IMG/VR virus record: IMGVR_UViG_2703719354_000003
Reading direction: 5' to 3' (one strand)
Source of the DNA: a virus
Lineage: Duplodnaviria; Heunggongvirae; Uroviricota; Caudoviricetes
Length of the DNA: 13,572 nucleotides
Shown here: positions 7,985 through 13,572 of the stretch, in pieces
Layout: every line of letters begins with the position of its first letter
Position numbering within the stretch: position 1 is the stretch's first letter
Notes under the pieces: model-generated
What the model was told of the DNA's origin: nothing
Database searches by the model: none
The model's input: only the letters and a program-made list of their open reading frames with translations
Position numbers and translations under genes: made by a program

Positions 7985-8170
7985 GCGGATCCACCGGCAG
8001 GCATTGCAGGTCCTGTTGTTGTACCGATGCCGACGGATATTTCCGCATCGGATACAGCGCACCGGATATCTCAGTCTGAAGGTTAACCGTCGCTGGCGGC
8101 TGTTATCGAAAGACGACGGCCGGAACTGGGAAGTAATGAGTCATGAACGTTATTCGGGAGAAATAAAGAA

Positions 8171-8563
8171 ATGATCGACAACCGCACCGCCAGCACCATT
8201 GACCAGGCATTACAGAAACATGATACACCCGTCGGCCCGTTATTTTTTGTAACACGCCACGGAAGAACAAAAAAATGCCTCACCCGAAAAACGGCAATTC
8301 GTTACCTGGCATTCTTTATGACCACCCGCGCTTTTGAACGTTCAGGATTCCGACAACGCTATCCTGACAAGCGTTTTATCTTCAACAGGAATGAGATATG
8401 GAAACGTGGAGAATCAACCACAGAGTATACCCGCGCACACCAGCGAACAATCAGACGACTGCGCAGACTCATCGCCAGGAAACAGTATACAGAAAAATGG
8501 TTCAGAAAATATGACACATGGAGCGCCGGATATTACGAACTGATGGCAACAAAACCATTCTGA
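8171..8563 (+). CDS. Hypothetical basic protein (130 aa)
   Basis: Arg/Lys-rich ORF in the operon orientation; GGGAG about 10 nt upstream of the ATG; function unknown. Confidence 0.45.
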   Translation: MIDNRTASTIDQALQKHDTPVGPLFFVTRHGRTKKCLTRKTAIRYLAFFMTTRAFERSGFRQRYPDKRFIFNRNEIWKRGESTTEYTRAHQRTIRRLRRLIARKQYTEKWFRKYDTWSAGYYELMATKPF

Positions 8564-8623: not shown

Positions 8624-8812
8624 ATGAACATTTATTTCAGAATAGTTATATCACTGGCAATTATCACATGTATTTACGGATTAATCGTTCCGGCCCTCAT
8701 ATCAATGAAGGATACGGTAGCAGTGATTTCTGGCTTTGCTCTGGCGTGTCTGACCCCGCCCTGCATTTATGCCATTTATAAGGGTCTTTCTTTTTCTAAG
8801 GATAAAAGATGA
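8624..8812 (+). CDS. Small membrane protein (62 aa, two predicted hydrophobic helices)
   Basis: Two hydrophobic stretches (IVISLAIITCIYGLIVPALI and VAVISGFALACLTPPCIYAIY); GGAGG just upstream of the ATG (short 3-nt spacer); stop overlaps the start of the SPFH gene (ATGA at 8809-8812). Confidence 0.55.
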   Translation: MNIYFRIVISLAIITCIYGLIVPALISMKDTVAVISGFALACLTPPCIYAIYKGLSFSKDKR

Positions 8813-9636
8813 AAAAATTACTTTTTGCTTTAGCCCTTGTTCTGCCGACCATTGGCCTTGTCGGTTGCGATCGCGTTGAGCCTGGTAATGTGGGCATCAA
8901 AGTAAACAAACTGGGCGACGATAAAGGCGTCGGTGAAGTGGTCGGTGTTGGGCGCTACTGGACGGGATGGAACACTGAGGTTTACATCTTCCCGACCTTT
9001 AAGCAGATGAAGACCTACGATGATCCATTCAGTTTCCAGATGAGTGACGGTACAACCATCGGCTATCACATCGGCGTGGCCTACAAAGTTGATCCATCCA
9101 AAGTTACCACAGTCTTTCAGACCTACCGCAAAGGCGTGGACGACATTACCGACACCGACCTGCGCCAGAAGATAGCCGACGCACTCAACCGACTGGCCAG
9201 CAAAATGACCACCGACAAATTTATCGACGGCGGCAAGTCTGAGCTGCTGGATGCAGCTCTTAAAGACATTCAGGAAGAAATGACGCCCATCGGTATTCAG
9301 GTAATGAGCCTCTCATATGTGGGTAAGCCGGAGTACCCACCTACTGTTATCGACAGCATTAATGCCAAAGTCACGGCGAACCAGAAAACCCTGCAACGCG
9401 AGCAGGAAGTAAAACAGCGCGAAGCGGAAGCCAACATGTTGCGCGCGGAAGCTGCCGGACAGGCAGATGCGATTCGCACAAAAGCCCAGGCCGAAGCCGA
9501 TGCTATTCGTTTACGCGGTGAAGCTCTGCGCCAGAACCCCGGTGTTATGGAGCTGGAAGCCATCAACAAGTGGAACGGTACACTGCCGCAATACATGACC
9601 AGCGGTGCCAACACACCATTTATTCAGGTTAAGTAA
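8809..9636 (+). CDS. SPFH/band-7 (stomatin/prohibitin/HflK-C-like) domain lipoprotein
   Basis: Signal peptide with lipobox LVGC (Cys 20); SPFH-like core followed by an Ala/Glu/Arg/Gln-rich coiled-coil (QREQEVKQREAEANMLRAEAAGQADAIRTKAQAEADAIRLRGEALRQNP) typical of HflK/C and stomatin-like proteins. Confidence 0.75.
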   Translation: MKKLLFALALVLPTIGLVGCDRVEPGNVGIKVNKLGDDKGVGEVVGVGRYWTGWNTEVYIFPTFKQMKTYDDPFSFQMSDGTTIGYHIGVAYKVDPSKVTTVFQTYRKGVDDITDTDLRQKIADALNRLASKMTTDKFIDGGKSELLDAALKDIQEEMTPIGIQVMSLSYVGKPEYPPTVIDSINAKVTANQKTLQREQEVKQREAEANMLRAEAAGQADAIRTKAQAEADAIRLRGEALRQNPGVMELEAINKWNGTLPQYMTSGANTPFIQVK

Positions 9637-9679: not shown

Positions 9680-10429
9680 ATGAATATTGTAACCATCAAC
9701 AACAAACAGTTTCCGGTAATCGAATATCGCGGTCAGCGTGTTGTGACATTTGCAATAATTGATGACGTCCACCAGCGCCCGGAAGGTACCGCCCGTGCTG
9801 CGTTTAACCGCAACCGTTCTCACTTTATCGAAGGGGTGGATTTTCTTGAAATGACTGCGGACGTAATACGTACGGAGTCACTTTCTGATGCCTTTGCCGC
9901 GCGAACTGCCAAAGGGATCATTCTTTTCGAGTCTGGTTACCTGATGTTGACGAAGCCTTTTAACGATGCTCTTGCATGGCAGGTTCAGCGCGAACTGGTT
10001 AACAGCTATTTCCGAACTCACGCGCCGCTGACGGAAATGGAGATGATCGCTGCAATGGCCGCCGATGCCGTTCGCCAGCAGAAGCGCCTGAGTCATGTTG
10101 AAGAGAAGATCGAAACGGTCACCAAAGCTGTGGAGAACATCAAACGCGGCACAATGCGCACCGGATATGTCGGTTACCGCCAGGTGGTAGCCAAAAGCGG
10201 AATGAGTGACGCCAAGTGTCGGAATCTGGTCAACGCCTACCACATCCCTACCGACACGCACGAATTTATGACTCCGGACGGTCTGTTGTCTCGCAGGGCT
10301 GTCGTCGAGCTTGAGACATTTATGGCGGCGTTCCACCAAATGATGTCAGAGGCTGAACCACGCGGCACACGCTGGTATCACCCGAAGATGGGGCTTTTTC
10401 AGGTAATCGGATGGGAGGATAAAGCATGA
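9680..10429 (+). CDS. KilA-N/ORF6N-domain protein (phage antirepressor-like)
   Basis: N-terminal MNIVTINNKQFPVIEYRGQRVVTFAIIDDV...GYLMLTKPFNDALAWQVQRELVNSYF resembles KilA-N/ORF6N domains of phage antirepressor or Rha-like proteins; GGAG 6 nt upstream of ATG 9680 (the ORF-track start 9605 is an in-frame upstream GTG). Confidence 0.6.
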   Translation: MNIVTINNKQFPVIEYRGQRVVTFAIIDDVHQRPEGTARAAFNRNRSHFIEGVDFLEMTADVIRTESLSDAFAARTAKGIILFESGYLMLTKPFNDALAWQVQRELVNSYFRTHAPLTEMEMIAAMAADAVRQQKRLSHVEEKIETVTKAVENIKRGTMRTGYVGYRQVVAKSGMSDAKCRNLVNAYHIPTDTHEFMTPDGLLSRRAVVELETFMAAFHQMMSEAEPRGTRWYHPKMGLFQVIGWEDKA

Positions 10430-10994
10430 TCATCCAGTCAAAACTTATTCGCGCCGCTCTGGTGTGCGCTGCTAAAAACGACGTTCGTTATTACCTGAAC
10501 GGTCTTCACATCACGCCAAAACATATTGAGGCAACCAATGGTTTCGTAGCACTGCGCATGACTCACGGCATCCGGACGAAGAAAAACATCATTGTCCAGT
10601 TCGAAGGTGGCGTCCCGGCCAAAGCCGAAACGACAGAGCTGATTTTTAGTAAAGAGCCGATCCTGTTCATCGCGACCAGTTTCAGCGCCGGCTGTCCATT
10701 ACCGGCATTAAATTGGTGGACGGTTGTTTTCCGGATTTGGAACGCATCATTCCGAAAAAATTTGACCTCTGTACACACCCGGTGATCCAGGCGGGTTACC
10801 TGAGTTATCCAGAGAAGATGTTTGGTCGTGAGCGTAAATTTATTCCCGTCCAGTTACGTTCCTCCGGTGACGGGCAAGCGGTCAGAATTCAGTTTGATTC
10901 CATCATCAACTCAATGTATGGCAATCCTGAATTTGTTGTGATGCCTTGTCGTGATCATGGCGATTTCAATGTGGCTCAGGAGCATCCGGAATGA
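10426..10994 (+). pseudogene. DnaN (DNA polymerase III beta sliding clamp) domain II-III homologue, interrupted by a frameshift near 10687-10697
   Basis: Frame 1 (10426-10785) encodes ...AKNDVRYYLNGLHI...ATNGFVALRM..., matching the E. coli DnaN domain II start (QDVRYYLNGM...ATDGHRLAV); frame 0 (to 10994) encodes ...RLSITGIKLVDGCFPDLERIIPKK...EFVVMPCRD, matching DnaN FIFTSKLVDGRFPDYRRVLPK and the C-terminal AYVVMPMRL. Homology continues across the frame change, so the two ORFs are one disrupted gene. Confidence 0.6.
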
Positions 10995-11113
10995 AAATCG
11001 AATACCAGGACGCCGCAGGAGGTGAATCAATGAGCTGGCCTGATGCAATCGTAACTCTGGGGGTGGTATTCGCAGTAGCGTTTGTTGTGTTCTCAATTTG
11101 TCGATGGGGATAA
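10991..11113 (+). CDS. Small single-pass membrane peptide (40 aa; alternative start at 11030 gives 27 aa)
   Basis: AGGAGG (11017-11022) 7 nt upstream of ATG 11030; in-frame ATG 10991 overlaps the upstream stop (ATGA); hydrophobic core AIVTLGVVFAVAFVVFSI. Below the ORF-track length cutoff. Confidence 0.4.
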   Translation: MKIEYQDAAGGESMSWPDAIVTLGVVFAVAFVVFSICRWG

Positions 11114-11117
11114 CCAC

Positions 11118-11360
11118 ATGTTCGCTTTGATTCAACGCGGTCAGATATACACGGACAGAGCCGGATACCCCGTGGTGATTACTCGCATCACTGAGCACTC
11201 AGTGTTCTTTCGACGGATGGACGGACGATCCGGGCGGGTACGCATTGGTGAGTTAAACTGCCTGTTCGAACATATTGACCACCAGGAGTACCGCAAAATT
11301 CTCGCGGACACTGAGCAGGAAAAGCACCTGAAAAAATTACGAGCCATAAAAAGGAAGTAA
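11118..11360 (+). CDS. Hypothetical protein (80 aa)
   Basis: ATG 11118 with GGGGA 8 nt upstream, 4 nt after the preceding stop; the ORF-track start 11082 is an upstream TTG. Function unknown. Confidence 0.5.
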   Translation: MFALIQRGQIYTDRAGYPVVITRITEHSVFFRRMDGRSGRVRIGELNCLFEHIDHQEYRKILADTEQEKHLKKLRAIKRK

Positions 11361-12902: not shown

Positions 12903-13572
12903 TTATTCTGTCGCGCCACCTATCGAAACATAATCATGAAATTGATCGTCAATGAGTCGGTCCTTACAGATAACATGTACAATGTGACGACAACAGTTTT
13001 CATCATCATACGCACGACCCCAGCGAACAATCTCATCTACAGACAGATCATTCGCACTCCATGGCAAAGTACCTGAAACGCCACGCGCACCTGGACCAAG
13101 TATGTCCATAAATTTCTTCGTGCGTGAATTGTAGATCCGTACCTCGGCAATTCGAATGATGCTACTAGCCCAAAGAGCACCACCGGCAATACTTTGAATG
13201 TTATCGCAGATGAGAAACTCATGCTTTCGCGCAAGCATTTTATAGATCTCACGCGCCAAACCTGCTGATTGGAAATCCTGTGCGATAACAGCGCTTTTCA
13301 CTTGCTTTCCGGTCATCATCTGACCGTTCTCTTCGATAAAATTAAAGTCGTTGAACTGTATACGACCTATTCTTATCGTTTTGTTATCGTCTACCATATC
13401 AAGACCCAAGAGGGTATTGACCAGATCCTGCATTGGAACCTTCGAATCAAGAAGGTCACTGTGAACCGCCCCGGGTTTCCTGGAGAGTATTTTATCTGTG
13501 AACTCAGGCTGCCAGATCATCGTTTCCGATGGAAGCATAATAAGCTTTTTCTGCTTCTGCCGGAGGAGTATG
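12903..13572 (-). CDS. Hypothetical protein, 5-prime-partial (N-terminus beyond the window end)
   Basis: Reading frame stays open upstream of the first in-window Met through position 13572; appears AT-richer than the prophage replication genes by eye; no motif confidently assigned. Confidence 0.55.
   Translation of the reverse strand, partial: ILLRQKQKKLIMLPSETMIWQPEFTDKILSRKPGAVHSDLLDSKVPMQDLVNTLLGLDMVDDNKTIRIGRIQFNDFNFIEENGQMMTGKQVKSAVIAQDFQSAGLAREIYKMLARKHEFLICDNIQSIAGGALWASSIIRIAEVRIYNSRTKKFMDILGPGARGVSGTLPWSANDLSVDEIVRWGRAYDDENCCRHIVHVICKDRLIDDQFHDYVSIGGATE

Follow-up and report, generated by a model that had tools for sequence, protein, structure and literature searches.

What would a phage do with part of a sliding clamp, and can the copy at this locus still work? 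We analysed a stretch of tailed-phage DNA of 13,572 nucleotides (Caudoviricetes; IMG/VR record IMGVR_UViG_2703719354_000003), referred to below as the window, in which positions 10426..10994 of the + strand resemble a shortened beta sliding clamp (DnaN) with a broken reading frame. A first-pass annotation, made from the letters alone, had described this gene, here called the mini-clamp gene, as prophage-encoded, derived from DnaN, lacking domain I and currently frameshifted, and that description held. The reading we favour, with a modest degree of confidence, is that the window carries a dead copy of a phage gene whose intact product would be a non-encircling, stand-alone docking site for peptides that contain the clamp-binding motif.

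The mini-clamp gene is inactivated by a one-nucleotide deletion

Pairwise DNA alignment of 10426..10994 with the intact 570-bp allele revealed one gap and five substitutions. Intact one-frame orthologues, which the first-pass annotation had proposed to seek in related prophages, do exist: that of strain JNEC-KY202 is 570 bp long, is read in one frame and encodes a protein of 189 amino acids (aa) (WP_000586690.1) that the Prokaryotic Genome Annotation Pipeline (PGAP) calls a 'beta clamp domain-containing protein'. The window has two + strand open reading frames (ORFs) in differing frames, 10426..10785 (ORF1, 119 aa) and 10713..10994 (ORF2, 93 aa), which overlap by 73 nucleotides. The frame change had been placed at about 10687-10697; alignment to the intact allele puts the real site at 10662/10663, some 25-35 nucleotides away. 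This site lies neither in a homopolymer nor near any slippery heptamer. The gene has the following features.

10426..10994, + strand: mini beta-clamp pseudogene; 189 codons after one G is restored
10426..10662, + strand: N-terminal part that is still in frame (codons 1-79); encodes helix 1 and the greater part of the domain II-like fold
10486-10497, + strand: RYYL; pocket residues equivalent to beta R152-L155
10534-10545, + strand: TNGF; pocket residues equivalent to beta T172-H175
10662..10663, + strand: site of the 1-nucleotide deletion; codon 80 (GCT) has lost its G, giving ATC^CTG against ATCGCTG in intact alleles
10663..10994, + strand: out-of-frame C-terminal part; codons 80-189, in the frame of ORF2
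10719-10748, + strand: connector DGCFPD..RI; equivalents of P242/R246/V247
10783..10785, + strand: premature stop of the frameshifted ORF1; its product is 79 native plus 40 out-of-frame residues
10788-10799, + strand: QAGY; equivalents of N320/Y323
10935-10952, + strand: VVMPCR; equivalents of V360-R365

ORF1 keeps native residues 1-79 and ORF2 native residues 96-189, and the segment 10663..10994 also encodes the last strands of domain II. ORF1 does not reach the connector or the C-terminal strand and ORF2 does not include domain II, so that neither fragment is able to form the peptide-binding pocket described below, and function is lost in this strain. The region is 100% identical to that of E. 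coli E110019 (CP035751), where PGAP annotates the same span as 'hypothetical protein, frameshifted'.

The gene is present in 60 of 5,426 complete E. coli genomes, and in 58 of the 60 it has the 570-bp, one-frame form. The exceptions are E110019, with 569 bp, and DETEC-S792, with a separate +1 insertion in an A-run. The exact 119-aa product of the window's ORF1 was found on 203 contigs (NCBI, ENA and Logan), E. coli E128010 among these, and the exact intact allele on at least 1000. CP035751 and the window have 10 differing positions and an IS3 element at different locations, but the deletion is common to both. Because the 203 contigs and this second, non-identical record carry the same deletion, it is a genuine, clonally inherited inactivating mutation. 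Of the two origins that the first-pass annotation had offered for the frame change, an inactivating mutation is borne out by the recurrence of the truncated product, and a sequencing error is rejected on the same evidence.

A further alternative is that the two ORFs are joined by programmed ribosomal frameshifting, or reflect an assembly artefact, and that the gene is functional here; we judge this to be very improbable. The 73-nucleotide overlap does contain an A-rich run (CCGAAAAAATTT, 10751-10762), but the native protein would need a shift within a few codons of 10662, where there is no slippery sequence, and a shift at the A-run would leave residues 80-110, a stretch of about 30 residues that includes DGxFP, out of frame. 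Programmed frameshifting was rejected on these grounds. The single frame found in nearly all of the 60 genomes speaks against both versions, and the identical truncated ORF in independent assemblies, together with the second record, speaks against an artefact.

Among intact alleles, the ratio of nonsynonymous to synonymous substitution rates (dN/dS) is 0.08-0.22, which indicates that purifying selection acts on them. Other, independent inactivations were also seen: loss of one A from an A6 run (giving A5) at codons 111-112 in E. coli/Shigella (25 contigs), a Klebsiella allele frameshifted at the same site, an added A at codons 17-18 in DETEC-S792, and a Salmonella allele with another frameshift. 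In Salmonella phage Fels-1, positions 2529-2849 match residues 80-187 only, with 72% identity and across two 'hypothetical protein' annotations, which suggests that this copy is likewise truncated or split.

The mini-clamp family derives from DnaN

As a single sequence, the protein gave marginal matches to the clamp: 17.4 bits to PF02767 (cut-off 27), E~0.003 to residues 136-253 of E. coli beta, and E=5e-4 to TIGR00663 (19.1 bits against a cut-off of 137.65 bits). An exhaustive profile search revealed a large family, with 1,172 clusters at 50% identity (E<=1e-10), and nearly all of the top 150 clusters are 170-210 aa long. A profile of 100 family members matched E. coli beta with E=1.6e-18, and all 41 of its PDB matches were beta clamps. 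The likeness to DnaN, which had first been aligned by eye, is therefore significant in a profile search at the family level. Among the 100 representatives, 24 matched PF02767 and only two matched PF02768, while Pfam searches with the protein and the 100 relatives gave no match to PF00712; some individually tested relatives exceeded the PF02767 cut-off, with 34-38 bits across the whole domain. The AlphaFold2 (AF2) model of an 82%-identical family member has a predicted local distance difference test score (pLDDT) of 90.4 and a predicted template modelling score (pTM) of 0.86. Every significant structural and profile match was a sliding clamp, with identities to beta clamps of about 15-27% in structural alignments.

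Homology to the central clamp domain, PF02767, is thus found at the family level, whereas full DnaN membership (three domains, about 366 aa and a score above the TIGR00663 cut-off) is not reached. Because the domain count, the interface described below and the TIGR00663 threshold all fall short, the family is a DnaN-derived, phage-borne protein of 1.5 domains, a diverged relative and not DnaN proper.

Database labels for the family vary, and include 'DNA polymerase III beta subunit', 'beta clamp domain protein' and 'RusA-like Holliday junction resolvase'. The last is carried by PHROG 3007, to which the protein belongs (E=5.8e-65 over residues 1-179), and by many RefSeq phage records, so that a resolvase has to be considered. 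There is, however, no Pfam match to RusA, PF02767 being the only family hit, and the significant fold and profile matches named above are to clamps throughout. We give a RusA-like identity practically no credence and rejected it; the PHROG 3007 label is best explained as a propagated annotation error. For this family, then, 'RusA-like Holliday junction resolvase' is wrong and 'DNA polymerase III beta subunit' is misleading.

The ring-closing parts of the clamp are absent

The protein has too few residues to hold two clamp domains. A hidden Markov model (HMM) of the family, built from 147 sequences (mostly cluster representatives at 50% identity), was scored against pieces of E. coli beta, whose sequence was checked against 1MMI.

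Chimera of beta 129-253 and 314-366: 88.8 bits, aligned end to end
Beta 129-313: 66.2 bits
Beta 129-253: 59.6 bits
Beta 314-366 alone: 21.8 bits
Beta 254-313 alone: 2.5 bits

From these scores, the C-terminal part of the mini-clamp is the second beta-alpha-beta-beta-beta half of domain III. The secondary structure of the model agrees with such a half-domain (helix 123-133; strands 142-146, 153-157 and 169-172), with a short extra helix at 159-164. The architecture is accordingly domain II without its second helix, the connector, and the second half of domain III (beta 314-366). In the AF2 model, strands 55-59 and 69-73 are separated by nine residues with no helix, segment 60-68 forming a loop. 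At this point of the alignment, E. coli beta has a channel-lining helix (about residues 197-208). The loop that replaces it holds a short conserved GxIP, in which the family-specific Pro64 is 96% conserved. Instead of two channel-lining helices per domain, the domain II-like part of the model therefore has one long helix.

Domain I and beta 254-313, about 60 residues, have no aligned counterpart in the family. In beta, I272 and L273 of the dimer interface and the acidic cluster E298-E304 (PMC11139829) fall within 254-313. No residue of the head-to-tail dimer interface, formed by I78/F106 of domain I against I272/L273 and E298-E304 of domain III, has an aligned counterpart. Along with domain I and the N-terminal half of domain III, the protein has lost both faces of the interface that closes the ring, which makes a canonical or PCNA-like ring unlikely. 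The first-pass annotation had assigned domains II-III to the protein; the domain II-like part and the connector stand, but beta 254-313 is missing and helix 2 of domain II has given way to the nine-residue loop. The PCNA-like trimeric ring of two-domain protomers that it had envisaged is not what the sequence offers, since the half-domain that bears the interface is absent.

The nearest surviving form of this 'mini-ring' idea is an unconventional oligomeric clamp, in which protomers of 1.5 domains would pair through their half-domains (four protomers, for example, giving six domain equivalents) and form a ring round DNA. Clamp domains consist of two similar beta-alpha-beta-beta-beta halves, which makes half-domain pairing geometrically conceivable, and an isolated half-domain is unusual. 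In addition, E. coli beta*, the C-terminal two-thirds of beta, reportedly behaves as a trimer. These points have to be set against the absence of both canonical interface faces and of one inner helix per protomer, and against the AF2 monomer, which is confident and has the half-domain packed as in beta. Moreover, no clamp-loader gene accompanies the mini-clamp gene in CP035751 or in phages TheodorHerzl, Shewanella phage 1/41, C1 and LPST49, and conservation is strongest on the peptide pocket and not on any putative interface. We regard an oligomeric clamp of this kind as improbable.

The peptide-binding pocket is conserved

The pocket of beta that receives clamp-binding motifs comprises 18 residues in subsites I and II (PMC11139829). 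All 18 have aligned positions in the family, and 15 are kept identically or by similar residues. Ten are identical and at least 75% conserved among the 147 sequences (R152, L155, T172, G174, H175, P242, Y323, M362, P363 and R365), and five are replaced by similar residues only (R246 by R/K, V247 by V/I/L, V360 by I/V/L, L177 by L/A/M and N320 by N/Q). Of the 156 aligned positions 18 belong to the pocket, yet these supply 10 of the 20 that are most conserved (Fisher p=2.7e-6), and the remaining conserved positions mostly flank the pocket (Y154, G157, D173, G239 and D243). Judged from the alignment, the pocket is the most conserved feature of the family.

Distribution of the family among phages

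The family was detected in 253 phage genomes using tblastn. It occurs as a lone opposite-strand gene within the structural module of Dhillonvirus TheodorHerzl and of Shewanella phage 1/41, and in Deseoctovirus C1 and phage LPST49 it is the last gene of a small ParB-like/methyltransferase cassette. Across Enterobacterales prophages the general operon position is kept and the immediate neighbours vary. No conserved partner gene was found among the carriers: the upstream gene is ORF6N, BRO-N, pRha, DUF5406 or of unknown type, and in some lytic phages the gene stands alone. TheodorHerzl encodes PolA, and C1 and this window encode no polymerase, the replication genes of the prophage being a superfamily 2 (SF2) helicase and a Zn-ribbon/Toprim primase. 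A tie to a phage-encoded polymerase was rejected, since the family occurs both with and without one. The absence of a fixed partner gene and of a polymerase tie points to a host-encoded target. Comparison with the defence models of PADLOC-DB gave 0 families at E<=1.

A predicted docking function

Given the conserved pocket, the most likely role of the intact protein is docking, as a decoy or an adaptor. Domain II, the connector and the half of domain III would together build the peptide pocket, and the protein would not encircle DNA but act as a soluble docking site for QLxLF-type peptides in lytic growth. One option is that it would titrate a clamp partner off the host clamp, with translesion polymerases, Hda, MutS/MutL and the delta subunit of the clamp loader as candidates; alternatively, it would tether such a partner for the phage. 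The first-pass proposal that a mini-clamp could recruit or sequester clamp-binding proteins fits the strong conservation of the pocket, the binding itself being predicted.

A more specific version, which we put forward tentatively, is that the family is a widespread 'pocket-only' clamp decoy of Proteobacteria phages, which would soak up selected host partners or clamp-directed toxins and rewire lytic replication and repair. If true, this would make it an undescribed class of host-takeover or counter-defence protein, and SOS-induced translesion polymerases, Hda, MutS/L and the clamp-loader delta subunit would be the candidate targets.

Several points weigh against a docking role. The alignment to DnaN was anchored on the conserved motifs, and the Fisher test is therefore not fully independent; pocket residues also lie at the interface of two subdomains, so that part of their conservation could serve folding. 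The position of beta H175, a His in 90% of the family, is S or F in E. coli alleles; in beta, His175 bridges the two pocket subsites. The family is mostly mildly basic (median isoelectric point (pI) 8.3, and 9.1 for the E. coli allele, against 5.2 for the acidic beta), a charge more in keeping with direct binding to DNA than with a protein that is purely a soluble decoy. Several carrier phages depend on the host DNA polymerase III (Pol III), and indiscriminate sequestering of its partners would hurt the phage. Finally, half a clamp domain would normally expose a hydrophobic surface; homo-oligomerization, for example by half-domain pairing, is possible, and an unconventional ring is conceivable in geometric terms.

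The basic pI brings in another explanation, namely that the protein is a non-ring tether or processivity factor, comparable to the monomeric herpesvirus UL42; the basic surface of the mini-clamp would lie on DNA while its pocket held the host Pol III alpha subunit or phage PolA by a clamp-binding motif. Such a factor would aid phage replication instead of sequestering host factors. The conserved pocket is as expected for it, a helping role alongside host Pol III would be logical in the polymerase-less phages that carry the gene, and in some phages the gene is near primase or helicase genes. This linkage to replication genes is inconsistent, however: TheodorHerzl, Shewanella phage 1/41 and C1 have the gene in a structural neighbourhood that is distant from their replication module. 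Domain II has kept only one of its two channel-side helices, and 39% of members are acidic. We consider a tether possible but rather unlikely.

As a separate observation on the allele series, codon 40 (10543-10545), at the position of H175, encodes Phe in the window and in A34, Ser in JNEC-KY202 and CFSAN029787, and His in G3/10.

Comparison with known systems

Compared with E. coli beta (1MMI/2POL), the mini-clamp has 189 instead of 366 residues; domain I is gone, domain III has lost its first half and domain II its helix 2. The protein has the conserved Pro64 loop, is mostly basic instead of acidic, and is phage-borne and dispensable where DnaN is essential.

A shorter form of E. coli beta had been mentioned in the first-pass annotation. 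This form, beta*, is said to have been described by Skaliter, Paz-Elizur and Livneh in J Biol Chem in 1996 as an ultraviolet (UV)-inducible 26-kDa product of an internal dnaN start. The mini-clamp resembles beta* in being shortened at the N-terminus: beta* reportedly starts at about beta residue 135, and the mini-clamp alignment begins at 136. The two differ in that beta* would be a host dnaN product with complete domains II and III, whereas the mini-clamp is a separate, diverged prophage gene of 1.5 domains, without an internal dnaN start and without an equivalent of beta 254-313.

Members of the same family include TheodorHerzl bas14_0007, PHROG 3007 and gp20 of Burkholderia phage AH2, a 209-aa protein with a homology-based 'DNA polymerase III beta subunit' annotation (PMC3483164); these do not differ in kind from the mini-clamp, although the window copy is frameshifted. 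BFVD models of 160-250 aa gave template modelling (TM) scores of 0.7-0.8 to the mini-clamp model. The non-ring, clamp-fold processivity factors of herpesviruses, namely herpes simplex virus 1 (HSV-1) UL42, human cytomegalovirus (HCMV) UL44 and Kaposi's sarcoma-associated herpesvirus (KSHV) PF-8, differ in having two full domains and in belonging to a lineage of eukaryotic viruses. Their binding to DNA through a basic face is documented, and they have no detectable sequence relationship to the mini-clamp.

Phage proteins that target the host clamp by means of a clamp-binding motif include MuC of phage Mu (PMC12867686) and Gp168 of phage Twort (PDB 7EVP). The mini-clamp is like these in that phages exploit the same surface of pocket and motif. 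MuC and Gp168, however, carry the motif and bind the host clamp, whereas the mini-clamp carries the pocket and would bind the motif, as a mirror image.

The pocket of beta, an antibiotic target as well, is a hub where polymerases compete with repair proteins and with regulators of replication. A large phage family, with more than 1,100 clusters at 50% identity and members in 253 sequenced phages, has pared the clamp to this pocket and discarded the ring-closing parts, which suggests that phages manipulate the competition among clamp partners from the 'receptor' side. No description of such manipulation was found in the literature searched, nor any functional or structural study of the short clamp family, where homology-based annotations were all that appeared. 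Through these annotations the family is already visible in databases and phage genome papers. It would offer a natural minimal pocket scaffold for inhibitor work. The window copy is an ordinary pseudogene, and its interest lies in the unexpected pocket-only architecture of the family.

Prophage context and minor observations

The mini-clamp gene belongs to the early-left operon of a lambdoid prophage. The immunity region is on one side of the gene and xis/int on the other, with a DUF4222 gene and then the integrase gene downstream. Its immediate neighbours are as follows.

9680..10429, + strand: ORF6N-domain (antirepressor-like) gene, upstream; its stop overlaps the mini-clamp start (ATGA, 10426-10429)
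10991..11113, + strand: ORF of 40 aa with a hydrophobic C-terminal end, downstream; its start overlaps the mini-clamp stop (ATGA, 10991-10994)

By way of these ATGA overlaps the mini-clamp gene is coupled translationally to both neighbours. As the start of the 40-aa ORF overlaps the mini-clamp stop, the frameshift would probably uncouple its translation.

The upstream antirepressor-like proteins have an N-terminal ORF6N domain here and BRO-N in G3/10, with a common C-terminal region that ends in RWxHPxxGxF (10240-10429 of the window). The same early-left operon contains two accessory genes, a ParE-family toxin-like gene (7956-8174, + strand) and a gene with an SPFH/Band-7 domain (8809-9636, + strand). 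A hypothetical early-left protein of 119 aa (7410-7769, + strand) contains QLLLRF at residues 52-57, the only match in the window to the clamp-binding consensus QLxLxF; the match is compatible with chance, about 0.5 being expected by a rough estimate.

At the place of window positions 11164-11166, inside the DUF4222 gene, CP035751 has an IS3-family element (1,310 bp, with a 3-bp target duplication), which follows position 11166. The window has no IS3 there; its last 111 bp (13462-13572) are the first 111 bp of this element, so that the two records differ in where the IS is placed. The two records also differ in a C-run around 983 (976-989), which is C6 in the window and C7 in CP035751. The Q-antiterminator ORF at 628-1029 (- strand) is intact here (133 aa) and 'frameshifted' in CP035751, and the C6/C7 difference reflects real variation or else an error at the homopolymer in one of the assemblies. 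Positions 1-78 (- strand) give a partial match, cut by the window edge, to the Rfam small RNA STnc100, with 48.7 bits against a gathering score of 47.

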